Origin: Hyphomicrobiales bacterium
GTDB taxonomy: Bacteria > Pseudomonadota > Alphaproteobacteria > Rhizobiales > NORP267
DNA length: 64,000 nt
Direction of reading: 5' to 3'
Assembly (NCBI GenBank): GCA_021775855.1
Contig: JAJFGZ010000002.1
Coordinates: forward strand, 5,723 to 69,722
The position numbers were made by a program, and so were the translations under genes. The notes under the pieces are model-generated. The model worked only from the letters and a program-made list of their open reading frames with translations. It was not told where the DNA came from and searched no databases. Below, piece by piece: positions 15,127-27,022 of the stretch. Numbering within the stretch: position 1 is the first letter of the stretch; every line of letters begins with the position of its first letter.

Positions 15127-15345
15127 TCAGTCCTGCGATTTCGTAAACAGCCGCTCGATCCTGGATATCAGGTAATCCGCAAAGGTGAGCAGCAGGAAGG
15201 ACACCAGGATCGCCGGGATGAATTTAAAGTTGGAGGCAGGGGTTCCCCTGATCTGTGTGCCGAGCAGGAGCCATATCTGATAACAGCCATAGGCCAGACC
15301 GGCCGTGATTACCAATGCGAGAATGCTGGATATGATTTTTTGCAT
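15127..15345 (-). CDS. Small two-TM membrane protein (last gene of the Rieske operon)
   Basis: 72 aa (MQKIISSILALVITAGLAYGCYQIWLLL...FIPAILVSFLLLTFADYLI). The ATG lies 2 nt after the upstream stop, and AAGGGTG is upstream. I recognise no family. Confidence 0.5.
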   Translation of the reverse strand: MQKIISSILALVITAGLAYGCYQIWLLLGTQIRGTPASNFKFIPAILVSFLLLTFADYLISRIERLFTKSQD

Positions 15346-15347
15346 GG

Positions 15348-16133
15348 CTAAAACACCCTTGCCTGTGAAACATCAACCTTGAATACGAGGATATCGTCGA
15401 GCCGCTCGATCTCGCCTTCAAGCTGAACCATAATTGCCACAAGGTCGTAAAATTCATCGGGCAGAGGACCGCCATTCTCATCGGCCAGCAAGAAGAACGA
15501 GGTCCCCTCCACTTCCCCGGTCGAGACAAAGACCGGGGGCACCCCGCCAATCAGACAAAGATTGGCGCAGGCCCGATGTGCTATCCCGGTGCCGGGACGC
15601 ATGGCGCCCCCATAGCATTTGCCGTCGCAGATCTCGCCCGACAACCGCCATCGCCCAAGGGATACCGGCGGGGCCGGGGTAAAAGCGCGCTGGAGATCCG
15701 TCAGGCCTTCGTCGGCCGGCACAAGCGCCTGTCCCCTGAGCTGGAGCATATCCATGTCGCCACGCGACAGAAAAAAGCCTGATGCATTGACAACTTGATC
15801 CCCCAGCTGAGCGGCCCGGTCCTGCAATCCAGCTTTTCCCGGCGCCGTCAGCATCAAGGTCCGTGGTTCCGGATGGCCTTCCGATGGCGCCGTTCTCAAA
15901 ACCGGGTAAGGCAGTTCTTGGACCACCCCCACAAATTGCTGCATATTGTTGCGCCCTCCGACAAAACGGCCATCACCGGGATCGCTGGTATTGCTGCCAA
16001 TCGCGAAGGACAGAGCCGCCATGCCGATAAGGATACCGAGCGTGGCCGCGAGCGAGAAGATGATCAGCGGCGCCTGGACGCGGTTAACATAGCCAACAAA
16101 AAAGGGTCGTTCCGGGGTGTGACTGGACATCAT
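15348..16133 (-). CDS. Membrane-anchored protein of unknown family with paired CxxxC motifs
   Basis: 261 aa. The start forms an ATGA overlap with the upstream gene at 16130-16133. There is one N-terminal TM helix (PLIIFSLAATLGILIGMAALSFAI). The soluble domain contains CDGKC and CANLC. Confidence 0.65.
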   Translation of the reverse strand: MMSSHTPERPFFVGYVNRVQAPLIIFSLAATLGILIGMAALSFAIGSNTSDPGDGRFVGGRNNMQQFVGVVQELPYPVLRTAPSEGHPEPRTLMLTAPGKAGLQDRAAQLGDQVVNASGFFLSRGDMDMLQLRGQALVPADEGLTDLQRAFTPAPPVSLGRWRLSGEICDGKCYGGAMRPGTGIAHRACANLCLIGGVPPVFVSTGEVEGTSFFLLADENGGPLPDEFYDLVAIMVQLEGEIERLDDILVFKVDVSQARVF

Positions 16134-17188
16134 GCAGCTCCTGGTACCTGGATGGGTTCAACGCGGGTTCCTGGCGCACAGGCTTGTGGGTCAAGCAGCA
16201 CCTGGTCGCCTTTCAACTTCAACCTGTAGGTCGCAATTTTCTCAGTAAACGGCGCCGGGGCACGGCCATCCTCGACCCGGTACTGGAATCCGTGCCAGGG
16301 ACAGGTCACGCAGCCATCGATGATCCGCCCCTCACCGAGCGGGCCGTTCTGGTGGGCGCAGACGTTCGATAGCGCGGATAATTTATTGCCGTGGCGGAAC
16401 ACCGCGACCCGCTCGTCGCCTTCCAGCGATACAATGACCGCACGATCCAGGGGAATGTCATCGACGGCACCGGCGATAACCCAGGAGGACGTATCATCGG
16501 TTTCCGCCGCTGCCCGGTCTTTTCGCCGCTCGGCTCGCCCTGCCAGGAAATGCAGCCCCGCCACCGCCATGCACGAAGTCACCACGACCATCGCAAAAAT
16601 GGGGTTGGCGGCTGCCTGAAGGTACCCAAGCGAGACGTGCAACACGATCAATGTATACGCCACGTAGACCGACATATGGATGGCTTTCCACACCCCAGGG
16701 GTGAGGAAATGCATCCAGAAATCGTGGCTTGTAACCGCCATGACCAGCAAAATCAGCAGAGCAAATACACCGAATAATTCGAAAGGAAACCCTAAAAATT
16801 GACCGAAACTGGTGTTGGCGCCCAGTACAGCCGCATATTTGTCGATCGAGCTGAATGAAAAATAGATGCTGATCACATATGTCGCGTGAACAAAGGCAAC
16901 AGCGCAGGTAATCACGCCAAAATGCCGTCGGTTATAGAGAAGAGGCAAGAAGCGGGTATCGAGACGCGCCAGCGGCCCTATACACAGGATCATGGTCAGC
17001 ATTAGAAATGCACACGTCCCAAATGCCTGAGCCTTGAAGATCGCGCCACTGACGCGGCGCGTAACTTCCTGAAAACTCGGTGTCAGCTCGACAAATATGA
17101 ACACATAGCCGAACACCATGATGAGCAGGATAAGATCGTAAATGATCTTGTTCGAATTCCAGGTAACCGGGGTGTATTTAACGCTCAT
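16130..17188 (-). CDS. Ferric-reductase-like (MsrQ/YedZ-type) six-TM domain fused to a C-terminal Rieske [2Fe-2S] domain
   Basis: The N-terminal ~210 aa is polytopic with conserved His in helices (FVHATYV, SHDFWMH, AIHMSVY, VLHVSLG). The C-terminus has CAH-x16-CPWH, encoded at 16292-16360. Confidence 0.8.
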   Translation of the reverse strand: MSVKYTPVTWNSNKIIYDLILLIMVFGYVFIFVELTPSFQEVTRRVSGAIFKAQAFGTCAFLMLTMILCIGPLARLDTRFLPLLYNRRHFGVITCAVAFVHATYVISIYFSFSSIDKYAAVLGANTSFGQFLGFPFELFGVFALLILLVMAVTSHDFWMHFLTPGVWKAIHMSVYVAYTLIVLHVSLGYLQAAANPIFAMVVVTSCMAVAGLHFLAGRAERRKDRAAAETDDTSSWVIAGAVDDIPLDRAVIVSLEGDERVAVFRHGNKLSALSNVCAHQNGPLGEGRIIDGCVTCPWHGFQYRVEDGRAPAPFTEKIATYRLKLKGDQVLLDPQACAPGTRVEPIQVPGAA

Positions 17189-17349
17189 TGGTCTGTCCCT
17201 CCGGCTTGCACCGGCGCTTCCAATAGCCTGGCCGGGCGTTCGATCGGGCCGTTCTGGCGGATAAACGTTGCCGCGACCAGGATGGCTGGTAGCAGGACGG
17301 CCAGCAAGGTCCAGATGCGGGCATGCGCGGTTCTATGACGGCGTTGCAT
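17185..17349 (-). CDS. 54-aa single-TM protein (not in the ORF track)
   Basis: My own translation gives MQRRHRTAHARIWTLLAVLLPAILVAATFIRQNGPIERPARLLEAPVQAGGTDQ*. GGGGGGAG lies upstream of ATG 17349. The stop forms an ATGA overlap with the start of the downstream gene at 17185-17188. Confidence 0.55.
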   Translation of the reverse strand: MQRRHRTAHARIWTLLAVLLPAILVAATFIRQNGPIERPARLLEAPVQAGGTDQ

Positions 17350-17353
17350 AATT

Positions 17354-17569
17354 CTACTCCCCCCGCTGTGTTTCGAGTTTGAGCCAACGCCAGAGAACCA
17401 GGGGCCACAACACGACGATGCCCGGTATCAAAAGCGCACGAAAGCCAAATGCCTGGTGCGAAGATGGGTCAATCCGGTCGATCCCGAACATCAGGAACGG
17501 CACAGAAACAGCCGCCCCGATATACCCGTAGATCTTCACGATTTCGATGATTTGAAGTGCGAGTTCCAA
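17354..17569 (-). CDS. 71-aa two-TM membrane protein
   Basis: Start is placed at TTG 17569, preceded by GGAGGG at 17575-17580. The track start at 17674 would overlap the upstream gene by 47 nt. Hydrophobic segments are IYGYIGAAVSVPFLMFGI and ALLIPGIVVLWPLVLW. Confidence 0.55.
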   Translation of the reverse strand: MELALQIIEIVKIYGYIGAAVSVPFLMFGIDRIDPSSHQAFGFRALLIPGIVVLWPLVLWRWLKLETQRGE

Positions 17570-17627
17570 TTGATCCCTCCAATCTGAACCTGTTTCGAAT
17601 TCGATTTTTCCCCTCGCCGTCTTTCCA

Positions 17628-19607
17628 TCAGACAAGGTCCGCGTCGGTAATAATCTCGACCAGCGCCGGGCCATCGTAGGCCAACGCCGCCTTCAGGGCT
17701 GGCTCAATCGCGACTGTCGCCGTGACTTTTGTTCCATGACCGCCGCACAGGCGGGCAAAAGCGGCGAATGACGGGTTGTGCAGGTTGGTTTCCCAGACCG
17801 GCCATTCACCGGCACGTTGTTCTTTCGATATTTTGCCAAGCTCTGAATTGTTGAGCAGGATGTGGGTAATGTCCATGCCGTATTTGACGGCCGTGGTGAA
17901 ATCCATCGGGTATTGACCGAAGCCGCCGTCGCCGGATATCGAGATCACCTTGCGGCCCTTATATTCGTCAAAATCCTGGGTTGCGGCCCAGGCACCCATG
18001 GCGGCTGGGAAACCGAATCCGATGGACCCCAGATATCCGGACATCAAGACCCGCTGGCCTTTTGTTTCGAAATACCGGCCGAATGAATACGTATTGTTGC
18101 CAACGTCCGCCGCGATAATTGCGTCGTCGGGACAAAGCTCACTCAGGTGCTTGAATATGGCAGCGGAATGAATCCCTTGCCCGCGTTCTTCCTGCAACCG
18201 GGAGGTTTTTTCATCGCGCCAGATGCGCCACCGTTCTACCAACTCCTTGATCTGATCGTCGGCGGCTTTTGGCAATGATAGCCGGGGCATGACCGCTTCG
18301 CAGAACGCCCCGATCTCGCCCCAGATTGGCAACTCCACGGGGTGAAACTTGCCAAGCTGCATGCGCTCGAAATCCACCTGGATGATCGGTTTCGAGCGCT
18401 CGATTCCGGTATGATTGGCGAACGACGATCCAAGCGCAATAATCAGATCCGCTTCGTTCATAAACCAACTCGCGACCGGCGTGCCGGATCGGCCCAAAAC
18501 ACCTGCGGCGTTCGGATGGGTGTCTGATATCAGCCCCTTGCCCTTGAACGTGGTCAGGACCGGAGCGCCCAGTTTCTCGGCCAATTCGATCACCGCAATC
18601 CGGGATTCAACCGCGCCGTGGCCAATGATGACGATGGGGCGCTTGGCGCTGTTGATCAATGTTGCTGCGCGGTCGAGATCGTCGGATGCCGGGATCACAA
18701 CGTGCCCACCAACCCGTCCGTCCGGGTTTCCGGCAGCGGCGGCACTCGGTTGGGTCTGGATATCGTCGGGAAAAATAAGGTGTGAGACATCGTGCTCCAG
18801 CAACGCCGTCTTGCAGGCAAGTGACATGAGTTCGGCATGATTGGAGGTGGACAGCACTGGCTGCGAGAACCGGGCAACGGCACCAAAGGCCGCGTGCAGA
18901 TCGATATCCTGGAAAGCGCCCGGACCAAATACCTGCGTTTGGACCTGGCCAGTGAGCGCCAATACCGGCGCGCGGTCGACCTTGGCGTCCCACAACCCGG
19001 TCATCAGGTTGGTGGCGCCCGGCCCGGCGATCGTCAGGCACGCCGCCGGTTTCCCGGTCAGTTTACCGTAGGCCGAGGCCGCGAAAGCCGCCGCGCCCTC
19101 GTGGCGCACGCCGATATAATCGAGCTCGTTATCGTTAGTGCGGCGGCGTATAGCATCCGACAGACCGAGGTTGGAATGCCCGACCATCCCGAAGACGCGC
19201 TTGACCCCCCAGTTGACCATGGTCTCCGCCATGACATCAGTCGTCGTTCGCTCGTGATCGGGTTCAGCCTCCAGCCCGACGAAAATTTCGCCATCACGTA
19301 TTTCGACGGGGTAGAGCTGCTGGCCAGAATCTTCATGACCGCCGGGAGGGGCACCGGTGAGCGGGTGAAAATCCCAGCCGTGCCACGGACACCGTATCCA
19401 GCATTCGCCATCAACACCGGTCTCAATCGAACCTTCGCCAAGCGGACCGCCCTGATGGGGGCAATGGTTGTTCATGGCGGCCCATTTGCCATCAAAATGC
19501 GACAGGCAGATCGATACGGTTCGTGCGGTCACGGTTTTGACCCGACCTTCCGGCAAGTCATCTTTGTGCCCGACACTTATCCATTCAATTTTCTTATCTA
19601 CCATCAT
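17628..19607 (-). CDS. N-terminal Rieske [2Fe-2S] domain fused to a thiamine-diphosphate enzyme (pyruvate oxidase/acetolactate synthase family)
   Basis: The Rieske motif CPH-x21-CPWH is encoded at 19380-19463. A TPP PYR domain follows (GVKRVFGMVGHSNLGLSDAI). The ThDP motif GDGGFGQYPMDFTTAVKYGMDITHILLNN is also present. Start is at ATG 19607 or 19604, after AGGGAAG. The track start at 19634 is a TTG. Confidence 0.85.
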   Translation of the reverse strand: MMVDKKIEWISVGHKDDLPEGRVKTVTARTVSICLSHFDGKWAAMNNHCPHQGGPLGEGSIETGVDGECWIRCPWHGWDFHPLTGAPPGGHEDSGQQLYPVEIRDGEIFVGLEAEPDHERTTTDVMAETMVNWGVKRVFGMVGHSNLGLSDAIRRRTNDNELDYIGVRHEGAAAFAASAYGKLTGKPAACLTIAGPGATNLMTGLWDAKVDRAPVLALTGQVQTQVFGPGAFQDIDLHAAFGAVARFSQPVLSTSNHAELMSLACKTALLEHDVSHLIFPDDIQTQPSAAAAGNPDGRVGGHVVIPASDDLDRAATLINSAKRPIVIIGHGAVESRIAVIELAEKLGAPVLTTFKGKGLISDTHPNAAGVLGRSGTPVASWFMNEADLIIALGSSFANHTGIERSKPIIQVDFERMQLGKFHPVELPIWGEIGAFCEAVMPRLSLPKAADDQIKELVERWRIWRDEKTSRLQEERGQGIHSAAIFKHLSELCPDDAIIAADVGNNTYSFGRYFETKGQRVLMSGYLGSIGFGFPAAMGAWAATQDFDEYKGRKVISISGDGGFGQYPMDFTTAVKYGMDITHILLNNSELGKISKEQRAGEWPVWETNLHNPSFAAFARLCGGHGTKVTATVAIEPALKAALAYDGPALVEIITDADLV

Positions 19608-19646
19608 CTTCCCTATCCCAGCATTGTCCCGCAACCAGCTACAGCT

Positions 19647-21257
19647 TTACGCGACGCCGCCGAACTGAATGCCGGACAATTCGGCCATGTCTTTTTTCCA
19701 GGTCGTCAAATCATCCGCATTGAAATTCGACAGATGATCGTGGCCGCACGCGCGCGCCATAACCTGCATCAGTTCGACGGAGGCTTCGAAAAAATTCTTG
19801 AGCTGGATTGCGGATTTTTCGACAACCAGGCGGCTGATCAGATGCGGTTTTTGCGACGCGATCCCGACCGGGCAATTATTGGTGTGGCAAGCCCGCATGG
19901 CGATGCAGCCGATCGCCTGCATCGCGGAATTGGAAACCGCGACCGCGTCGGCACCGAGCGCCATGGCCTTGATAAAATCGGCCGGTTTCCGCAACCCCCC
20001 GGTAATGACCAAGGTGATATTTCCGGGGCCATTCGTATCCAGATGCTGCCTTGCGCGGGCAAGGGCGGGGATCGTCGGCACCGATATATTGTCGCGAAAA
20101 ATAATCGGCGCCGCGCCAGTGCCACCACCGCGCCCGTCGAGGATGATGTAGTTGACACCGACCTCCAGTGCCGCGTCGATATCATTCTCGATATGCTGCG
20201 CGGATAACTTATACCCGATGGGGATACCCCCAGTGCGGTCGCGCACCTCGTCGGCAAAGTCCTTGATCTGGCTGACTTCGGTCCAGTCAGGAAAACGCGG
20301 TGGGGATATTGCGTCTTCGCCTTCGTTCAATCCGCGGACAGCAGCGATCTTGCCTTTGACCTTGGGACCCGGCAGATGCCCGCCGGTTCCGGTTTTGGCG
20401 CCCTGCCCACCCTTGAAATGGAACGCCTGGACTTTGGCCAACTTGTCCCAGTCGAACCCGAAGCGGGCAGATGCCAGTTCATAAAAATACCGGGAATTGG
20501 CCTGCTGCTCCTCGGGCAACATGCCGCCTTCGCCGGAGCAGATCCCGGTTCCTGCCAATTCGGCGCCGCGCGCCAGCGCCACCTTGGCTGGTTCCGAAAG
20601 CGCGCCGAAGCTCATGTCGGACACAAAAAGCGGGATATCGAGCTTCAGCGGTTTTTGCGCGTTGGGGCCGATCACGACATCGGTCGCGACTGCATCATTG
20701 TCTAGTAGAGGTGGAGTGGCAAGCTGTGCCGTGACGATCTGGATATCGTCCCAGTTGGGTAATTCGCCGCGTGGTACCCCCATGGCGTCGACCTTGCCGT
20801 GGTGACCGGTCTTGGATAGTCCGTCACGGGCGTATTGTTGGATCAGGCCGTTATAGGGCTCTTCCTCGGTCCCGTGGGAGGTGTCGGCGTAGAGGCCCAG
20901 ATAATCGTCGCGCTGGAACGGTTGAGGGTTTGCCTCGGCCCAGACGCCTATTTCATCTTCGTCGACGAGAATTTCACCCTTCTCGATCCACGACAAAAAT
21001 TTTGGCAACACCTCTTCATTGGCATATTCGGACACGCCGGTATCGAGGCGGTAATCCCAGTAATGCACGCCACAAATCAGGTTGTTGCCACGTACGAAAC
21101 CGTCTGACATGAGTGCACCGCGGTGCAGGCAACGTCCATAAAATACGGACACCTCTTCGTCGATCCGGACAACGACGAGGTCAACCTCGCCGACAAGCGC
21201 GTATTCCGGCTTCCGGTCTTTAAGATCATCAAATTTTGCAACTGACACTTTATTCAT
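19647..21257 (-). CDS. N-terminal Rieske [2Fe-2S] domain fused to a glutamate-synthase-type FMN/Fe-S domain (GltB domain 2-like)
   Basis: The Rieske motif CLH-x16-CGVH is encoded at 21063-21131. The GltS FMN-domain motifs are FHFKGGQGAKTGTGGHLPG and LDGRGGGTGAAP. The Cys cluster is C-x5-C-x4-C (GCIAMRACHTNNCPVGIASQ). Confidence 0.85.
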   Translation of the reverse strand: MNKVSVAKFDDLKDRKPEYALVGEVDLVVVRIDEEVSVFYGRCLHRGALMSDGFVRGNNLICGVHYWDYRLDTGVSEYANEEVLPKFLSWIEKGEILVDEDEIGVWAEANPQPFQRDDYLGLYADTSHGTEEEPYNGLIQQYARDGLSKTGHHGKVDAMGVPRGELPNWDDIQIVTAQLATPPLLDNDAVATDVVIGPNAQKPLKLDIPLFVSDMSFGALSEPAKVALARGAELAGTGICSGEGGMLPEEQQANSRYFYELASARFGFDWDKLAKVQAFHFKGGQGAKTGTGGHLPGPKVKGKIAAVRGLNEGEDAISPPRFPDWTEVSQIKDFADEVRDRTGGIPIGYKLSAQHIENDIDAALEVGVNYIILDGRGGGTGAAPIIFRDNISVPTIPALARARQHLDTNGPGNITLVITGGLRKPADFIKAMALGADAVAVSNSAMQAIGCIAMRACHTNNCPVGIASQKPHLISRLVVEKSAIQLKNFFEASVELMQVMARACGHDHLSNFNADDLTTWKKDMAELSGIQFGGVA

Positions 21258-21278
21258 TCTTGTATCCGCTTTCCCGTA

Positions 21279-22559
21279 TTATTCATTGATTAAAACTCCC
21301 ATATCCTCGACGGGAATCGTGATCAGAGGTTTTGCCGAGGATTCAACTTTCCTAGTCTCCGGGCAGTCGCCCATTAAGCGGACTTTCTCGGCGTACCATT
21401 TGGCGCCAGGTACAGCCGTCATGCCATGGAGCAAGGCGCTGATCCAAACCGCGTTGATGGCAATATTGATGACTTGGTCGGAAAACACCATCCCGATATC
21501 TTTCATGACCAGAAGCGCGAACAGGGCGGTTGCCAATCCGCGCGGGCCGAACCATCCGAAGAATAAACGGGTTACCGGAGCAGAATCGGTCTCGATCAGG
21601 GATATCCAGATCGCAACAGGGCGTACAACGAACAGACTGACCAGGATAAGCGCCAGAGTTCCGGGCGTGAGTTCCTGCAAAGCATCGGGGACAAGCGCCA
21701 AGCCAAGCAGGAAAAAAGCGCACCATGTGAGCATCTGTCCTTCGCTCTCCACAAACTCAAAAATAAACCGACACCGGCCGCGCACCATATTACCGAAGCA
21801 TAGCCCAGCGACAAAGGCAGATATAAATCCGTTGCCGCCAATCAAAGTTGCCCCGATATAGGCGATGCCGGCCAAGGCCAGCGCACCGATGCCTTCATAA
21901 ATTTCCGATGTAAATTGGCTGTCTTTAGAGATCAGCAGCAATTTTCCGCCAAGCAGGCCCACTGAGATTCCGGCGAGTGGGCCAAGCAGCAATTGTTGTG
22001 CACCAAACAAGGCCCAATCCAACGAGTCGTTGCTCATCGCCATGGCGGTCAAGCTCGCAAACAGCAGCACCGCTGGCAAGGCCAATCCGTCATTTAGACC
22101 ACTCTCGACAGTCAGCGCACGGCGGACCCGTTCGGGAACAATCGGGTTGGTTACGACCGCCTGCCCCAGCGCGGCATCAGTTGGCGCGAGAATGGCTGCG
22201 ATAAGTGCAACACCCACCAAAGGCCATCCCGGCAAAAACAGAATTGCAGCCAGGGTCCCCAATGCCACCGAGATCGGGAGCCCTATGGCGAGCATTCGCA
22301 CCGGCCATACGTGGCGCCTGCGCAGAGCATCCAGGTCGATCTGCGCGGCATCAAGGAACAGCAAGACGATCAGCGTGATCTCCGCAACCAGGTGGAGTCC
22401 CGCCTCCGCCTCCTCAGCTGGCAGAATATCCGTTAGAGAGACGAAATACCCGAGCAGGAGGAAAATCATCGGTGCCGTGACAATGGTGCTGGAAAGACGT
22501 TTCGCGATCATCGCAAAACCCAGTGTAAAAACACATAAAATTAGTATACCCAATAGCAT
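21279..22559 (-). CDS. Cation:proton antiporter (CPA1 / Na+/H+ exchanger family)
   Basis: 426-aa polytopic protein with the exchanger motif TVESGLNDGLALP. A gap of only 21 nt separates it from the downstream Rieske-GltS gene on the same strand. Confidence 0.85.
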   Translation of the reverse strand: MLLGILILCVFTLGFAMIAKRLSSTIVTAPMIFLLLGYFVSLTDILPAEEAEAGLHLVAEITLIVLLFLDAAQIDLDALRRRHVWPVRMLAIGLPISVALGTLAAILFLPGWPLVGVALIAAILAPTDAALGQAVVTNPIVPERVRRALTVESGLNDGLALPAVLLFASLTAMAMSNDSLDWALFGAQQLLLGPLAGISVGLLGGKLLLISKDSQFTSEIYEGIGALALAGIAYIGATLIGGNGFISAFVAGLCFGNMVRGRCRFIFEFVESEGQMLTWCAFFLLGLALVPDALQELTPGTLALILVSLFVVRPVAIWISLIETDSAPVTRLFFGWFGPRGLATALFALLVMKDIGMVFSDQVINIAINAVWISALLHGMTAVPGAKWYAEKVRLMGDCPETRKVESSAKPLITIPVEDMGVLINE

Positions 22560-22810
22560 TCAAAATTCTCTTTTTCGGGTGATTTGACAGGCTTTATTAT
22601 CTGAGTTCCACTTGCTAAAAATTCATCAAAGCGGGCTTCTTCCAATGTCTACCCACACGTATACGGAGGCCACGAAGTTGAGCCCGTTCATGATCCTATC
22701 AACGAACCTAACAAGAACAGGGGTTCCGGCATAATATCGATTGACTTTCGCTTCGATAGTTTCAGGCTATAGAAGGGAAAGGCAAAGAGGCGGAACCCGG
22801 AGCTCAGCGC

Positions 22811-23701
22811 ATGGAAATGCATCAGATACGCTATTTCCTGATGGTATCGAAGACACTCAATTTCACGCGCGCGGCTGAGCAATGTCACGTTGCCCAGCCT
22901 TCCCTGACGCGCGCCATCAAAAAACTCGAAGATGAACTTGGTGGCGAATTATTCCGCCGCGAGGGGCGCCGGACCCATTTGACCGATCTTGGCAACGCGA
23001 TGCTACCTCTGCTCACGCAGAGCTACGAATTTGCAAAAGCTGCCAAAGAACAGGCGGAAAGCCATGGCAAATCCGAGACCGGGCAATTGCGACTGGGCCT
23101 CGCCGAAGGCGTCGATATCCGCATCCTGATGCCGGCCATGAACGAAATAGGCCGCACGCTGCCAGAACTGGAATTCCAGGTCATTCGCGGGACCGCGTCG
23201 GACATCGAGAGAAGCCTGGAAGACGGTCAAATCGAAGTTGCAATAACAGCAAGTGAAGCCCAAGGCTGGGAGCGGATCAATCACTGGCTGTTATTTTCAG
23301 AAGAATTCCACGTCGCGATCAATTCGGATCACCGTTTAGCCAGCAAAAGCGAATTCAAGCTCAACGATTTTTCCGACCAGAGTGTTTTGAAATGCAAATA
23401 TTGTGAATATTCAAAAGCTTTCCCGATGCTGTTGAACGATCAGGATATTTCCACCGGGGCCATCCATGAAGTCACATCAGTCCCCGACCTTGAGATCATG
23501 CTGGCTGCAAATTTTGGGCTGGGGATCGTGCCGGAAAGTATGGAATTGGGCGAGACAGGCGTCGTGAAACTGCCGATTGAGGATGCCGGACTCAAACGTT
23601 CGCTGGAATTGCTGGCGGTTGCCGGACGGCAATATTCCAGGCCGGCGGCGCTTCTCATCGGGCTGCTGCGCGCGACAGATTGGTCGTCCCCCGAGGCGTG
23701 A
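22811..23701 (+). CDS. LysR-family transcriptional regulator
   Basis: The N-terminal HTH is MEMHQIRYFLMVSKTLNFTRAAEQCHVAQPSLTRAIKKLEDELG. It is divergent from the antiporter/Rieske operon. Confidence 0.9.
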   Translation: MEMHQIRYFLMVSKTLNFTRAAEQCHVAQPSLTRAIKKLEDELGGELFRREGRRTHLTDLGNAMLPLLTQSYEFAKAAKEQAESHGKSETGQLRLGLAEGVDIRILMPAMNEIGRTLPELEFQVIRGTASDIERSLEDGQIEVAITASEAQGWERINHWLLFSEEFHVAINSDHRLASKSEFKLNDFSDQSVLKCKYCEYSKAFPMLLNDQDISTGAIHEVTSVPDLEIMLAANFGLGIVPESMELGETGVVKLPIEDAGLKRSLELLAVAGRQYSRPAALLIGLLRATDWSSPEA

Positions 23702-23715
23702 TCCAGGTTGCTTTG

Positions 23716-25602
23716 TTATTTTCGTCGTGAGCTAGAGCCTGTATCCTCTTTTTCCTCATTCTCAACTTCTTTTGGCACGTAGTCGACGGAACCTTTTGGT
23801 GGAAAGTCAAGGGTCGACTGCAGGTCCTCGCGTTGTTGCGCCGGCATAAATGGGAAAGGCAATTCTCCAGCCTCCCGCCAGGCCTCAACCTGCGCCTCGG
23901 CAGCGGCCGTCCGGTCTTCTTCCGGGCCAGCATCGCGCGACACATAATTCATGCGAACCGGCACGGCAAGCCGGGTGCCAGCGCTTTCGATCGTCTCCAA
24001 TGTGCGCATGTAAATGTCCTCCCGGACCGCGGCATATTCGCCCCAGTCCAAAGTATCCACGTAGGCAATAAGCTGGATTTCGAGAGAACTTTCACCCAAA
24101 CCAACCAGGGTCAAACGCGGCCATTCGACCTTTGGATGGGCAAACAACATCTCTCGTAGTTTGGCCAGAACAAAGCGGAGCTGATCGGTGCTGGTATCCA
24201 GGCGAAGACCAAAATTCCCACGCAGGAGAATATATTTCATATCGCTGTAGTTGATCAGTTGGAAATCTGCGAATTGCGAGTTCGGCAACGAAATCATGTT
24301 GCCGTCCCACTGCCTGATGCGCGTCGACCGCAGACCGATCTCCTCGACATTTCCCATGACGTCCTCGAACTGGCAGAAGTCGCCGACCCGGACTGGCTTG
24401 TCGAGATACAATGTTACGCCAGCAATCAGGTTTTCGAGTGTTGGTCGCGCTGCAAGAGCGCCTGCAAGACCACCAACACCCAAACTTCCGATCACCGCTT
24501 CGATGGGCACACCCAACTGACTGGCGCCAATGGTCAGAAAAATTAAAACAGCAATCCAGGCGATCATGTTTACGGTGATCGAAATGAGGTGCCCGTCGAT
24601 CTTTCTAGGATCGATTTTTCGGGAAGCGATGATCGTCTGCGCGATCGCATTGCCCAAATTCAAAATCGCAACAGCGCCAAGCAGTTGGATAAAGATAAAA
24701 AAACTGAAGCTGGTAACCGCGTAGACAGCACCGATGAGAATGATCTGTGCTTCCAGGAGGAACAGTACGAAATAGGTCAGACCTACGCCCCCGAGAGCCA
24801 GGACAAAGCGTTGCCAATATCGATGATTCCCATCGCGGGAGCGGGAATAGCGGTGGGCACTGGTCAACGCCATTCCCCAGATCCCAACAACCAGGAAAGT
24901 GGCAAACCATTTCCACACAGCCTGATCAAGAATGGTTTTCTTGGCCCATTCAGGTAGTTGTTCGATCCAGGTGCGGTATATCATGGGACCCGGCGCAACG
25001 GAGAATAGCCTGTACAACCCTTTCATGGATCGCGGTTGGGGCGTCACGCCGGCGGTCAACGCATACAATACGCGAAGGTGGGTTATGGTCCCTGTGGAAA
25101 ACAGAAACTCGCCTTCGCGGGGGCCGCTTTCCGTTTCAGTGATTATGACGTAGGTGCCGGGAATCCGGTAAATAATCGGCCCGCCTCCCGCCGCTGCCCT
25201 CAACTCATCGACACTTGGGATATCGTCATACGCGGGTAGCACGGCGTGATCGAGAACCTCGTTCAGCAGGACCGCGGCTTCGGCCGCCAGCCTTATTGCG
25301 TCAGCGGGCGGTAATTGGCTTTCGTCCAGAGTCCGAAGACCGCGGTATTGTGCAGCAGTGCGATGGGGAGCAGGCACATCGGGAGACTCATAAAACGCGC
25401 GGTAGGCAGCTTCCATATTCTCCCGAAAGCTTTGCAATGTCGCGCGCGGGCTGGACGTATCCGGCGGCGATAAGGGACTAGGTTCATCTTCCGTCGCCAA
25501 AACTGGCGCGGAAATAACGAGTATCAGGAAAATCAGAACTGCGCGCAGCGACGAAAGCCAATTCCCGGACGTGGGCAAATATCTCCAAAAATTCCCGGAC
25601 AT
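23716..25602 (-). CDS. Mechanosensitive ion channel (MscS family) with a large N-terminal periplasmic region
   Basis: A signal-like N-terminus and several TM helices are present. The MscS beta-domain motif is PVRVGDFCQFEDVMGNVEEIGLRSTRIRQWDGNMISLPNSQF. Confidence 0.85.
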   Translation of the reverse strand: MSGNFWRYLPTSGNWLSSLRAVLIFLILVISAPVLATEDEPSPLSPPDTSSPRATLQSFRENMEAAYRAFYESPDVPAPHRTAAQYRGLRTLDESQLPPADAIRLAAEAAVLLNEVLDHAVLPAYDDIPSVDELRAAAGGGPIIYRIPGTYVIITETESGPREGEFLFSTGTITHLRVLYALTAGVTPQPRSMKGLYRLFSVAPGPMIYRTWIEQLPEWAKKTILDQAVWKWFATFLVVGIWGMALTSAHRYSRSRDGNHRYWQRFVLALGGVGLTYFVLFLLEAQIILIGAVYAVTSFSFFIFIQLLGAVAILNLGNAIAQTIIASRKIDPRKIDGHLISITVNMIAWIAVLIFLTIGASQLGVPIEAVIGSLGVGGLAGALAARPTLENLIAGVTLYLDKPVRVGDFCQFEDVMGNVEEIGLRSTRIRQWDGNMISLPNSQFADFQLINYSDMKYILLRGNFGLRLDTSTDQLRFVLAKLREMLFAHPKVEWPRLTLVGLGESSLEIQLIAYVDTLDWGEYAAVREDIYMRTLETIESAGTRLAVPVRMNYVSRDAGPEEDRTAAAEAQVEAWREAGELPFPFMPAQQREDLQSTLDFPPKGSVDYVPKEVENEEKEDTGSSSRRK

Positions 25603-25668
25603 GAATGCGCCTCCCCTTTGCGCGATACGTCTATGACCTGACTGGGTAATCTAGCATGACTTATTGCG

Positions 25669-26427
25669 TCAGGCACGCGCCGCTTTAAGCGCGGCGATAA
25701 CATCTTCAGGGGGCATGCGTTTGCGAAAATCCGGGCTTGTGAAGGCGTCCAGGACGGTCCCGTCGGAAGCGATGACATAGGTCGCCGGGATCGGCAGGAA
25801 AATACCGTGGTTGCCCTGAAATGAGGCCAGGTCGATATCGTAGGCAAGGTACGTCAGGCGGGCCTCCTCACCGATCGAGATCATCAATCCGTTGGACAGC
25901 GCGTAACCATTGTCAATATCGCAGAGCACCGGAAAGGGAAGCGTGTATTTCTCCTTGATGCCGGGTGCCGATACATTCTTCTCCGGAGTTATAGAGACGA
26001 TTTCACAGCCCAACGCCTTCACCTGATCATAAATCTCTATAAGCGATAACAATTCAAGCGCGCAATACCTGCACCAGCGCCCGCGGTTAAAACTCAAGAG
26101 CAGCGGGCCGGATGCAAGCAGGTCGCTTGAGTTGATCAGCTGTCCGTCGGTATCGGGCAAAAGAAACGGCGGTAGGACAGCTCCCTTGCCCAACGCACCC
26201 TCGCCCGCACCTCCAAGAATCAACCGCTTGACCAGTCGATCATAATCGTCGGCCAACTCTGGGTATTTGGCTTGAATTTTTTGCGTAAACGCCGCGAGCT
26301 CGCCAGAAAGCTTTTCACTCAGGCTGTGGATCGCCTCGGTATTCGGTTCAATCGTAGGCGGTCTATCAGGCATTGTAAGCCGAGCTTTAATCAGTTTCAG
26401 ACGTTCGAGTATATTGCAGAATTCCAT
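25669..26427 (-). CDS. Peroxiredoxin-like / AhpC-TSA (thioredoxin-fold) family protein
   Basis: The redoxin core contains a CxxC (FNRGRWCRYCALELLSL), and an extra helical region of about 70 aa sits at the N-terminus. Confidence 0.7.
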   Translation of the reverse strand: MEFCNILERLKLIKARLTMPDRPPTIEPNTEAIHSLSEKLSGELAAFTQKIQAKYPELADDYDRLVKRLILGGAGEGALGKGAVLPPFLLPDTDGQLINSSDLLASGPLLLSFNRGRWCRYCALELLSLIEIYDQVKALGCEIVSITPEKNVSAPGIKEKYTLPFPVLCDIDNGYALSNGLMISIGEEARLTYLAYDIDLASFQGNHGIFLPIPATYVIASDGTVLDAFTSPDFRKRMPPEDVIAALKAARA

Positions 26428-26500: not shown

Positions 26501-26577
26501 TGGCGACCCCGGCAGGATTCGAACCTGCGACCTGCGGATTAGAAGTCCGCTGCTCTATCCATCTGAGCTACGGGGTC
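26501..26577 (-). tRNA. tRNA-Arg (anticodon UCU)
   Basis: The minus strand reads GACCCCGTAGCTCAGATGGATAGAGCAGCGGACTTCTAATCCGCAGGTCGCAGGTTCGAATCCTGCCGGGGTCGCCA. It has a 7-bp acceptor stem, anticodon loop CTTCTAA, a GTTCGAATC T-loop and an encoded CCA. Confidence 0.9.
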
Positions 26578-26945: not shown

Positions 26946-27022
26946 TGGTCGGGGCAGCAAGATTCGAACTTGCGACCCCCTGGTCCCAAACCAGGTGCGC
27001 TACCAGACTGCGCCATGCCCCG
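26946..27022 (-). tRNA. tRNA-Pro (anticodon UGG)
   Basis: The minus strand reads CGGGGCATGGCGCAGTCTGGTAGCGCACCTGGTTTGGGACCAGGGGGTCGCAAGTTCGAATCTTGCTGCCCCGACCA. It folds as a cloverleaf with anticodon loop TTTGGGA and an encoded CCA. Confidence 0.9.

Follow-up and report, generated by a model that had tools for sequence, protein, structure and literature searches.

Several described redox systems bear on the genes considered here. MsrQ, the membrane component of MsrPQ (YedYZ in Escherichia coli), delivers electrons from the cytoplasm to the periplasmic reductase MsrP (PMC12525009), and to our knowledge the characterised members of the ferric-reductase-domain superfamily all move electrons outward. 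The pyruvate oxidase PoxB reaches ubiquinone through its C-terminal lipid-binding peptide, and electron transfer from one Rieske protein to another has precedent in oxygenase ferredoxin systems. The subject of this study is a minus-strand cluster of eight genes, g1 to g8 in transcription order, in a 64,000-nucleotide (nt) stretch of contig JAJFGZ010000002.1 from a Hyphomicrobiales bacterium; the whole of this stretch is called the window. Module A of the cluster encodes a cation:proton antiporter (g1) and two Rieske proteins, one fused to a GltS-type flavin mononucleotide (FMN) domain (g2) and the other to a thiamine diphosphate (ThDP) enzyme (g3). Module B (g4–g8) is a five-gene membrane cassette in which a ferric-reductase domain is fused to a third Rieske domain (g6). 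The cluster looks like a membrane-linked electron-transfer system whose parts belong to known superfamilies and whose combination has not been described; four of its subunit families are unannotated. The reading favoured here, to which we give a probability of about 0.38, takes g2 and g3 to be dehydrogenases whose electrons leave through the attached Rieske domains, enter g6 and cross the membrane to g7, with quinone or O2 as alternative acceptors.

The original prediction, an earlier note on this DNA, had described eight minus-strand open reading frames (ORFs) that included three Rieske fusions, and each ORF was found where it had been placed (Table 1). The spacings it gave are reproduced from the ORF coordinates: from g1 to g8 they are 21 nt, 39 nt (12 from the TTG start of g3), 58 nt, 4 nt, an ATGA overlap of 4 nt between g5 and g6, a second ATGA overlap and 2 nt. 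The three sets of Rieske ligands are complete and read exactly as claimed, CLH-x16-CGVH in g2, CPH-x21-CPWH in g3 and CAH-x16-CPWH in g6. All three domains match PF00355, lack the two extra disulfide cysteines of the bc1/b6f type and keep their ligands invariant. Pfam agrees with every proposed fusion, with Na_H_Exchanger in g1, Rieske plus Glu_synthase in g2, Rieske plus TPP_N/M/C in g3 and Ferric_reduct plus Rieske in g6, while g4, g5, g7 and g8 match no Pfam family even at E≤5 and none of the eight proteins reaches a curated NCBIfam cutoff. The original prediction was also right that the cluster encodes no Rieske-oxygenase catalytic domain and no FNR-type reductase, since Pfam and NCBIfam detect neither the mononuclear iron domain nor an NAD(P)H reductase, FNR-type or other, in any of the eight products. 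The possibility that the fusions are assembly or frameshift artefacts was rejected because an identical g3 is present on two independent assemblies, relatives of it occur in at least 572 genomes, and homologues of g2, g3 and g6 keep their lengths and all their cluster ligands.

Table 1. Features of the cluster and of its upstream flank, numbered from the first nucleotide of the window (aa, amino acids; TM, transmembrane)
Feature	Position (nt)	Strand	Description
g1	21279-22559	-	426 aa, ~11 TM helices; cation:proton antiporter, PF00999
g2	19647-21257	-	536 aa; Rieske domain aa 3-74 (nt 21036-21251) and GltS alpha-subunit-type FMN domain aa 188-505 (nt 19743-20696)
g2, presumed [3Fe-4S] ligand motif	19872-19907	-	C451-x5-C457-x4-C462 (CIAMRACHTNNC); aligned with 'CVMMRACHLDTC' of Bacillus subtilis GltS 7mfm
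g3	17628-19607 from ATG, or to 19634 from TTG	-	659 aa (ATG) or 668 aa (TTG); Rieske domain aa 8-86 (nt 19350-19586) and PoxB/pyruvate-oxidase-like ThDP enzyme aa 121-652 (nt 17652-19247)
g4	17354-17569	-	71 aa, two TM helices; first gene of module B; TTG start
g5	17185-17349	-	54 aa, single TM helix; strongly basic N-terminus (predicted N-in)
g6	16130-17188	-	352 aa; six-TM ferric-reductase domain aa 57-181 (nt 16646-17020) and C-terminal, predicted cytoplasmic Rieske domain aa 235-321 (nt 16226-16486)
g7	15348-16133	-	261 aa; one N-terminal TM helix and a two-beta-barrel (OB-like) domain; predicted periplasmic
g8	15127-15345	-	72 aa, two TM helices; last gene of module B
Divergent control region, g1/LysR gene	22560-22810	.	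251 nt; dyad TATCGA-N12-TCGATA at 22735-22758
LysR-family regulator gene	22811-23701	+	divergent from g1
MscS-family channel and AhpC/Redoxin-family genes	23716-26427		directly upstream of the LysR gene; channel of 628 aa
tRNA genes	26504-26577, 26949-27022		

The case for outward electron transfer rests on g6 and its neighbour g7. The ferric-reductase domain of g6 scores 45.2 bits against PF01794 (cutoff 28), and its six TM helices are predicted to run from an N-in to a C-in end. The original prediction had called this protein MsrQ-like, and it does align with E. coli MsrQ at the functional residues: R87R88 corresponds to R77R78, H101 to H91, H171 to H151 and H184 to H164, which in MsrQ are the arginine pair of the FMN site and the H91/H151/H164 triad (PMC12525009). 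H89 and H101 in TM3 and H171 and H184 in TM5 are invariant in 39 sequences, and the R87R88 pair is invariant as well. Relative to MsrQ, g6 has the further invariant histidines H89, H155 and H213, of which H89 could complete a second, NOX-like haem site; the inner site may hold either haem or FMN. In the AlphaFold 2 model (predicted local distance difference test score, pLDDT, 77.6), Foldseek matches the TM part with csNOX5 (5o0t, TM-score 0.62 on the target), human NOX5, STEAP1 and NOX2 and the Rieske part with the CarAc, T4moC and naphthalene dioxygenase (NDO) ferredoxins (E about 1e-5, TM-score about 0.7 on the target). A Rieske domain of the bc1 type, or one exported to the periplasm by the twin-arginine (Tat) route, was considered for g6 and rejected on three grounds: TM6 is not preceded by a twin-arginine motif, the TM helices are even in number, and a basic loop follows TM6. 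Judged from its residues and its modelled fold, g6 has the makings of an outward electron conduit.

The original prediction had described g7 as a TM-anchored protein with two CxxxC pairs; far from being a loose accessory, it is the dedicated partner of g6. The two genes are always adjacent, and three natural g6–g7 fusion proteins were found (P0301, P0351 and P0354) in which the g7 domain falls beyond a seventh TM helix. The fusions argue for a physical complex with the g7 domain on the side of the membrane opposite to the Rieske domain, and together with topology rules they make it most likely that g7 is periplasmic. The model of g7 (pLDDT 86.5) shows one TM helix followed by two beta-barrels, for which Foldseek finds no significant fold match in the PDB, and the protein belongs to no Pfam or NCBIfam family. 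Its own family comprises 1966 representatives at 50% identity and carries the signature GEIxDx[KR]C-x4-M[KR]PG-x5-H[KR]AC-x3-C, in which the conserved site is formed by C173, M178, H186, C189 and C193.

The remaining proteins of module B are small. The TTG start of g4 at 17569 sits 5 nt after a GGAGGG Shine-Dalgarno sequence. The longest ORF at this position (17354-17674, 106 aa) extends 47 nt into the 3' end of g3, and gene calls on two other assemblies of the source organism give either the 71-aa g4 or the 106-aa ORF. The short form is favoured by the Shine-Dalgarno sequence and by the start sites of the homologues, which lie about 12–14 residues ahead of a conserved YIGA motif. Homologues of g4 were found in 42 loci, always immediately upstream of g5/g6, those of g5 in 26 and detectable ones of g8 in 14; the Roseobacter group has a single fusion protein of about 125 aa in place of g4 and g5, and in five loci that hold module B only (L083–L086 and L176) a gene for 66–83 aa occupies the position of g8.

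The enzyme g2 combines a Rieske domain (45.2 bits) with a Glu_synthase domain (PF01645, 295.8 bits). The closest solved structures are GltS large chains (E 3e-34), and the match covers the FMN/[3Fe-4S] synthase domain only; Pfam detects no Ntn-amidotransferase, central or GXGXG domain, and the score against the NCBIfam model of the GltS large subunit is 130.4 bits against an equivalog cutoff of 1047. C451, C457 and C462 are invariant in the family and align to the GltS motif, whose C-x5-C-x4-C cysteines we take from the established GltS literature to be the [3Fe-4S] ligands. The segment QGAK288...R308 aligns with QGAKPGEGG...R of 7mfm, and its lysine and arginine are both invariant, which does not in itself prove the substrate; they presumably correspond to K972 and R992 of the 2-oxoglutarate site in Azospirillum brasilense numbering.

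The [2Fe-2S] domain on g2 is exchangeable. In an orthologue on a Vibrio fortis plasmid (L174, 7689-9239), two N-terminal CDGSH (mitoNEET-type) [2Fe-2S] domains replace the Rieske domain on a catalytic domain that is 69% identical to that of g2, suggesting that the N-terminal domain serves as an exchangeable electron plug. This Vibrio gene stands alone among genes for a GNAT protein, a DMT transporter, a LysR regulator and Dps. CDGSH clusters have higher potentials than FMN and [3Fe-4S] centres and are poor reductants for FMN, which favours an outflow of electrons from g2. The original prediction had proposed an imine or enamine reductase; an amino-acid dehydrogenase that feeds electrons out appears more likely, given the CDGSH swap and three observations described below, namely loci with module B and g2 that lack g3, a Rieske-less pair of related genes in Streptomyces and adjoining genes for glutamate-releasing hydrolases.

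The closest structures to g3 are those of E. coli PoxB (3ey9/3eya, E 6e-71, residues 121–654). RHEG of g3 aligns with RHEE of PoxB (Glu50) and SGDGGF...LNNSELG with CGDGGF...FNNSVLG of 3eya, so that g3 keeps the ThDP-activating glutamate and the GDG-x(24-27)-NN motif within the three-domain TPP_N/M/C fold. The best NCBIfam models all fall below cutoff (pyruvate oxidase PRK08611, 385.9 against 742; PoxB PRK09124, 315.1 against 792; SpxB, 258 against 638) and all describe families that contain flavin adenine dinucleotide (FAD), and g3 by its sequence is probably an FAD enzyme too; it also scores well against acetolactate synthase models. The alignment stops at residue 527 of the 572 of PoxB, and g3 ends 5 residues further on. 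It thus lacks the C-terminal lipid-binding peptide of about 40 residues and has an N-terminal Rieske domain instead. At least 572 genomes, in a set with one representative per GTDB species, encode full-length relatives, the closest being metagenome-assembled genomes (MAGs) of Hyphomicrobiales with 82–83% identity. Both enzymes are extremely conserved, with 43–54% of positions invariant (54% for g2, across 57 homologues).

The grouping of these genes was surveyed from two sides. Seeding with g3, in one genome per GTDB species, the best 80 of the at least 572 relatives were taken, all of them full length including the Rieske domain and 73–83% identical, from Hyphomicrobiales, Stappiaceae, Rhizobiaceae, Paracoccaceae, Sphingomonadaceae, Azospirillaceae and some Betaproteobacteria; 56 loci with enough flanking sequence were counted. 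Next to g3 in these stand g2 in 46, the g6+g7 cassette in 30 and g1, directly upstream of g2, in 27; the full set of g1, g2 and module B is present in 18. Among the 80 loci the order is g1-g2-g3-B, as in the window, in 18 and g1-g2-B-g3 in 16, with module B divergent in one and convergent in another. In the second order, which is of the Roseobacter type, g3 overlaps the last gene of module B. The neighbourhood of module B and g3 extends over two proteobacterial classes, Betaproteobacteria included. When metagenomes were seeded with g7, g2 and/or g3 were present in 9 of the 26 loci with good flanks, and in one arrangement g3 is divergent from g2-B. No Rieske protein other than g2 and g3 was found near module B. 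The co-occurrence of the three Rieske proteins across genomes is thus real in both surveys, as the original prediction had supposed, while the eight genes do not form one obligatory unit.

The cluster consists rather of two separable modules that occur together, apart or alone, and each of the two enzymes pairs with module B independently of the other. At 30 of the 56 loci g2, g3 and module B stand together. Three Rhodobacterales loci (L072, L075 and L077) have module B and g3 with no detectable g2 in its usual upstream slot, and five other loci (L088, L091, L093, L123 and L138) have module B and g2 with no g3 within 10 kb. At L072 the usual g2 slot (about 5.8–7.4 kb) holds nothing but short, odd ORFs, possibly the remains of a g2. 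Module B alone is found in Geminicoccus, in Kiloniella, on Rhizobium plasmids and elsewhere, and one complete chromosome carries it 0.5 Mb from g1-g2-g3. Where it is absent, a conserved FMN_red flavoprotein adjoins g3, and the copies from a Mycobacteroides abscessus plasmid and from an alphaproteobacterial MAG are 54.5% identical; at L010 it fills the g2 slot between g1 and g3. Spread on plasmids within the Alphaproteobacteria was rejected as an explanation, with g7 on five Rhizobium plasmids only, and g2 and g3 on haloarchaeal and Mycobacteroides plasmids only.

Other genes recur around the modules. In about 12 loci without module B (for example L004, 12072-13622, and L008, 12023-13573), two genes come after g3, one for a 283-aa protein with weak similarity to DUF5996 and one for a 228-aa TM protein with a TGTGFTT motif, and the same loci hold an extracytoplasmic-function (ECF) sigma factor and a zf-HC2 anti-sigma factor; the 228-aa protein matches no Pfam family, and its identification as a K+ channel was dropped for want of Pfam support. 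A different ThDP enzyme gene, one without a Rieske domain, lies nearby in 10 of the 26 well-flanked B-seeded loci, in at least three arrangements, and may be a second link of module B to ThDP enzymes. Its product best matches the acetolactate-synthase-like NCBIfam model PRK08322, below cutoff. Loci with it and with neither g2 nor g3 are L085 (2632-6364), L176 (592-4573), L109, L122, L125, L128, L140, L150, L152 and L153, and at L085 and L176, the two of these with annotated genes, it stands beside a CoA-transferase gene and an OpgC/acyltransferase gene.

The genes do recur in other genomes, and the core enzymes are by no means confined to this taxon; they reach haloarchaea and Actinobacteria, with Rieske-less or CDGSH versions. 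Megaplasmids of Halorubrum, Halorarius and Salinirubellus carry Rieske-ThDP (57–58% identity) and Rieske-GltS (60%) genes 1.4–17 kb apart, and full-length Rieske-ThDP proteins are also encoded in Haloferax and on the M. abscessus plasmid. Streptomyces plasmids have GltS-family and ThDP-enzyme genes adjacent in the g2-g3 order with no Rieske domains. In the pair from Streptomyces sp. NBC_00539 (L170, 7424-10824) the proteins are of 529 and 575 aa, Pfam finds a Rieske domain on neither, and the first 150 or so residues of the GltS-like protein are without a detected domain. In Azospirillum a related ThDP enzyme is encoded beside a PDR/VanB-type Fe-S flavoprotein. Genes for glutamate-releasing hydrolases adjoin g2 or g3 in haloarchaea and module B in Geminicoccus. 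On two haloarchaeal plasmids (L173 and L175) g2 is followed by a conserved string of dihydrofolate reductase, M20/M25/M40 hydrolase and TauE/SafE exporter genes, and in Haloferax (L172) a gene of the succinylglutamate desuccinylase family stands directly before g3.

Antiporter genes accompany these enzymes in three lineages of three phyla, and as they are not orthologous the association has arisen repeatedly. In the window, g1 has its best matches among NhaP2/CvrA-type K+/H+ antiporters and CPA1 (Na_H_Exchanger, E 2e-32), reaches 127.7 bits against the NCBIfam K+/H+ antiporter cutoff of 355 and has 11 hydrophobic segments. In Halorarius a Na+/H+ antiporter gene begins 43 nt after g3 and is followed by a K+ channel gene, and on the M. 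abscessus plasmid g3 is accompanied by a cation:proton antiporter as well as by the FMN_red flavoprotein. An analogy with Kef, a CPA2 antiporter for K+/H+ that has a C-terminal KTN/TrkA-N domain and is regulated by a flavodoxin-like quinone reductase (KefF or KefG), was rejected for the window, where g1 has PF00999 only, no KTN domain is present and there is no FMN_red gene. The LysR regulator encoded divergently from g1 is closest, all far below cutoff, to the NCBIfam models of GltC, CidR and AlsR, regulators whose target operons encode glutamate synthase, pyruvate oxidase (cidC) and acetolactate synthase; since it is not conserved beside the cluster in other genomes, a role here can only be presumed. 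Pairs of ECF sigma and anti-sigma factors adjoin module A or B in about 20% of loci, and the haloarchaeal islands around the enzymes contain merA, peroxiredoxin, GST and DsrE genes. On a Rhizobium leguminosarum WSM1689 plasmid (L176, 7512-12553), an SDR gene precedes module B, and TetR, ECF sigma, DUF1109/NrsF-type anti-sigma and chlorite-dismutase-family genes follow it, a context that points to oxidative or metal stress. Taken with the recurrent antiporters, the regulators and neighbours hint that the system serves in stress or in the homeostasis of ions and pH.

In the window itself the surroundings are those of an ordinary alphaproteobacterial chromosome, with genes for the pyruvate dehydrogenase complex, enolase, CTP synthase and tRNAs. 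A compositional island was looked for and rejected, the GC content being 0.56–0.59 in the cluster and 0.51–0.61 across the window. Promoter and terminator consensus scans gave matches at chance level, with nothing in the 58-nt gap between g3 and g4.

The favoured reading can be set out as a series of steps. In it, g2 would oxidise a glutamate-like amino acid to a 2-oxoacid and ammonia, and g3 would oxidatively decarboxylate a 2-oxoacid, possibly the product of g2; the Rieske-less pair in Streptomyces and the adjoining glutamate-releasing hydrolase genes suggest such consecutive steps. Each enzyme would hand single electrons to its own N-terminal Rieske cluster, and the cytoplasmic Rieske domain of g6 would take them up in the manner of transfer from a Rieske ferredoxin to a Rieske oxygenase. 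The MsrQ/NOX-type haem domain of g6 would then carry them to the periplasmic face, where g7 with its Cys/His/Met site may be the acceptor or the catalytic end, ubiquinone or O2 being possible alternative sinks. The proteins g4, g5 and g8 would be small structural subunits, g1 may offset the proton or cation imbalance of the redox chemistry, and where module B is missing FMN_red or other partners may take the electrons. In the original prediction the electrons ended in the quinone pool; the analogy of MsrPQ and NOX makes delivery across the membrane the more likely route.

Several observations weigh against this reading. GltS itself runs only reductively, so that g2 could be an electron sink. 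The position of PoxB Phe465, a residue implicated in electron transfer from ThDP to FAD, is occupied by lysine in g3. No copy of module B was seen close to g3 at 26 of the 56 well-flanked loci or on any of the four haloarchaeal plasmids examined, and among genomes without it near g3 it was located elsewhere in one only. It often stands alone, with no Rieske client nearby. The conserved site of g7 could be formed only by structural disulfides. The link to antiporters holds without module B too, which implies that it cannot be explained by electron export alone.

In the main competing explanation g3, acting on pyruvate or another 2-oxoacid, is the sole source of electrons. Its Rieske domain would reduce the Rieske-[3Fe-4S]-FMN chain of g2, which would act as an NAD(P)H-independent glutamate synthase that reductively aminates 2-oxoglutarate with free ammonia, and module B would be a vent for surplus electrons; the antiporter and K+ channel genes may tie this arrangement to K+-glutamate homeostasis. 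The pairing of g2 with g3 is the most conserved association, found in 46 of the 56 loci and on the same haloarchaeal plasmids, and the two enzymes share their high degree of invariance. No GltS FMN domain is known to act otherwise than as the reducing end of its chain, and g2 keeps the lysine and arginine of the 2-oxoglutarate site. The FMN_red flavoprotein takes the g2 slot at L010 and lies next to g3 in M. abscessus, and genes for K+/H+-type antiporters, a K+ channel and MscS occur nearby, in taxa that are salt-adapted. Against this, g2 has neither an amidotransferase domain nor an ammonia tunnel, the CDGSH clusters of the Vibrio orthologue would be poor reductants for FMN, and the g2-B loci with no g3 within 10 kb would contain two sinks and no source. 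The Rieske-less Streptomyces pair, moreover, fits a link by substrate and product better than one by electrons. On this balance, g3 as the only electron source is unlikely, and it is the competing explanation that survives best.

A simpler destination would be the respiratory chain, with g2 and g3 feeding the quinone pool through g6, and with g7 and the small proteins serving assembly or stability and delivering nothing to the periplasm. PoxB, which among solved structures is nearest to g3, reduces quinone, and neither Pfam nor Foldseek against the PDB detected in g7 a periplasmic motif for any known type of redox cofactor. MsrQ, in addition, binds ubiquinone, which may be an electron acceptor (PMC12525009). 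A haem conduit with an obligatory extracytoplasmic partner seems over-elaborate for this purpose, however, when PoxB manages with a peptide of 40 residues, and g7 carries an invariant Cys/His/Met site. The outward delivery common to the characterised ferric-reductase-domain proteins also speaks against it, and entry into the quinone pool alone is considered rather improbable.

It is very improbable that the Rieske domains are redox or iron sensors in a stress island of independent functions, with g3 as a non-redox ThDP enzyme, a carboligase or decarboxylase of the acetolactate synthase type. The acetolactate synthase scores and the lysine at the Phe465 position of g3 would fit, as would the ECF sigma/anti-sigma pairs in about 20% of loci and the merA, peroxiredoxin, GST and DsrE genes of haloarchaea. 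Three different enzymes in one cluster nevertheless keep complete and invariant cluster ligands, the Vibrio g2 exchanges its Rieske domain for another [2Fe-2S] electron-transfer domain, the g6 Rieske takes the place of the NOX dehydrogenase domain and structurally resembles electron-transfer ferredoxins, and the proximity of the genes survives at least four rearrangements. That the modules are functionally unrelated and adjacent by chance or by shared horizontal transfer is scarcely credible: each does occur alone and the largest gap, that of 58 nt, falls exactly at their boundary, but they are close in 30 of the 56 g3-seeded and 9 of the 26 B-seeded loci, in at least four orders and two proteobacterial classes, with g3 overlapping the last gene of module B in the Roseobacter type and with g2 and g3 as the sole Rieske proteins found near it.

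If electrons do pass from g2 and g3 through g6 to g7, the oxidation of central metabolites would be wired to the membrane's outer face with no need of NAD(P)H or of any soluble ferredoxin, along a widespread route (at least 572 species genomes with the ThDP fusion, about 2000 clusters of g7). A fused Rieske ferredoxin would then be a fourth type of donor for the NOX/STEAP/MsrQ superfamily, the now unannotated families of g4, g5, g7 and g8 would gain a function, and two strongly conserved orphan enzymes, Rieske-GltS and Rieske-PoxB, would be identified that are common to marine Alphaproteobacteria and haloarchaea. In abundant marine bacteria the cassette would then be a candidate source of reducing power for the periplasm, or of superoxide production or metal reduction outside the cell. 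A bolder proposal, which we regard as a long shot, is that g4–g8 form a novel transmembrane electron exporter of the MsrQ/NOX type, fuelled not by NAD(P)H but directly by the oxidation of amino acids and 2-oxoacids by way of docking Rieske-tagged dehydrogenases, with g7 as the catalytic end from a new redox family that possibly repairs or reduces periplasmic targets or reduces extracellular O2 or metals. Should g7 reduce O2 or metals, it might be a source of extracellular superoxide in the Roseobacter group and related marine bacteria, in which the enzymes behind this product are yet to be identified (PMC6414704). The recurrent association with antiporters hints further that redox chemistry may be coupled to pH or ion homeostasis. 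We know of no described precedent for a coupling of this sort in bacteria.

No characterised pathway of this composition was found in NCBIfam, among PDB structures or in the full-text literature, in agreement with the original prediction. The literature contained nothing on a Rieske-ThDP fusion, a Rieske-GltS fusion or the g7 family, and only a catalogue mention of the ferric-reductase and Rieske combination, which a survey of the superfamily lists without characterising it (PMC3591440). Module B resembles MsrPQ in its six-TM ferric-reductase domain, its aligned functional residues and its adjacent or overlapping gene for a dedicated extracytoplasmic partner. It differs in that g6 scores 40.6 bits against an MsrQ model cutoff of 130, has the invariant H89, H155 and H213 and carries a fused Rieske donor in place of a free NADH:flavin reductase; in that g7 is a two-barrel protein of no known family without the molybdopterin domain of MsrP; and in the addition of three small TM subunits. 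With the NOX/FRE/STEAP proteins g6 shares the TM fold, two histidines each in TM3 and TM5 as in the di-haem type, and a cytoplasmic donor domain after TM6. The spacing of its TM3 histidines is 12 residues rather than the 14 of NOX, and a Rieske domain replaces the FAD/NADPH dehydrogenase domain, implying that its reductant is not NAD(P)H directly.

The enzymes of module A stand in a similar relation to their relatives. The three-domain ThDP fold, the catalytic glutamate and the GDG...NN motif of g3 are those of PoxB and the pyruvate oxidases LpPOX and CidC, whereas g3 falls below every equivalog cutoff, has no C-terminal lipid-activated peptide, adds a Rieske domain and has lysine in place of Phe465. 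Like the GltS alpha subunit, g2 has the PF01645 domain with C-x5-C-x4-C and QGAK...R, and by analogy with ferredoxin-dependent GltS it may exchange electrons with a [2Fe-2S] protein, here fused to it. Unlike GltS it has no amidotransferase, central or GXGXG domain, its [2Fe-2S] domain is of the Rieske or CDGSH type and not of the plant type, and its catalytic direction is possibly reversed. The Rieske domains themselves, with CxH...CxxH and without the disulfide cysteines of the bc1 type, are akin to the Rieske ferredoxins (CarAc, T4moC, BphF and the NDO ferredoxin) and to NirD. In contrast to Rieske-oxygenase chains, the cluster encodes neither an NAD(P)H reductase nor an oxygenase alpha subunit; its Rieske domains sit on a ThDP enzyme, a GltS-type enzyme and a membrane cytochrome. 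Since MsrPQ, NOX/FRE/STEAP, PoxB, GltS and the Rieske chains each have defining features from which g2, g3 or g6 departs, the parts appear to work in like manner to these systems without being members of their families.

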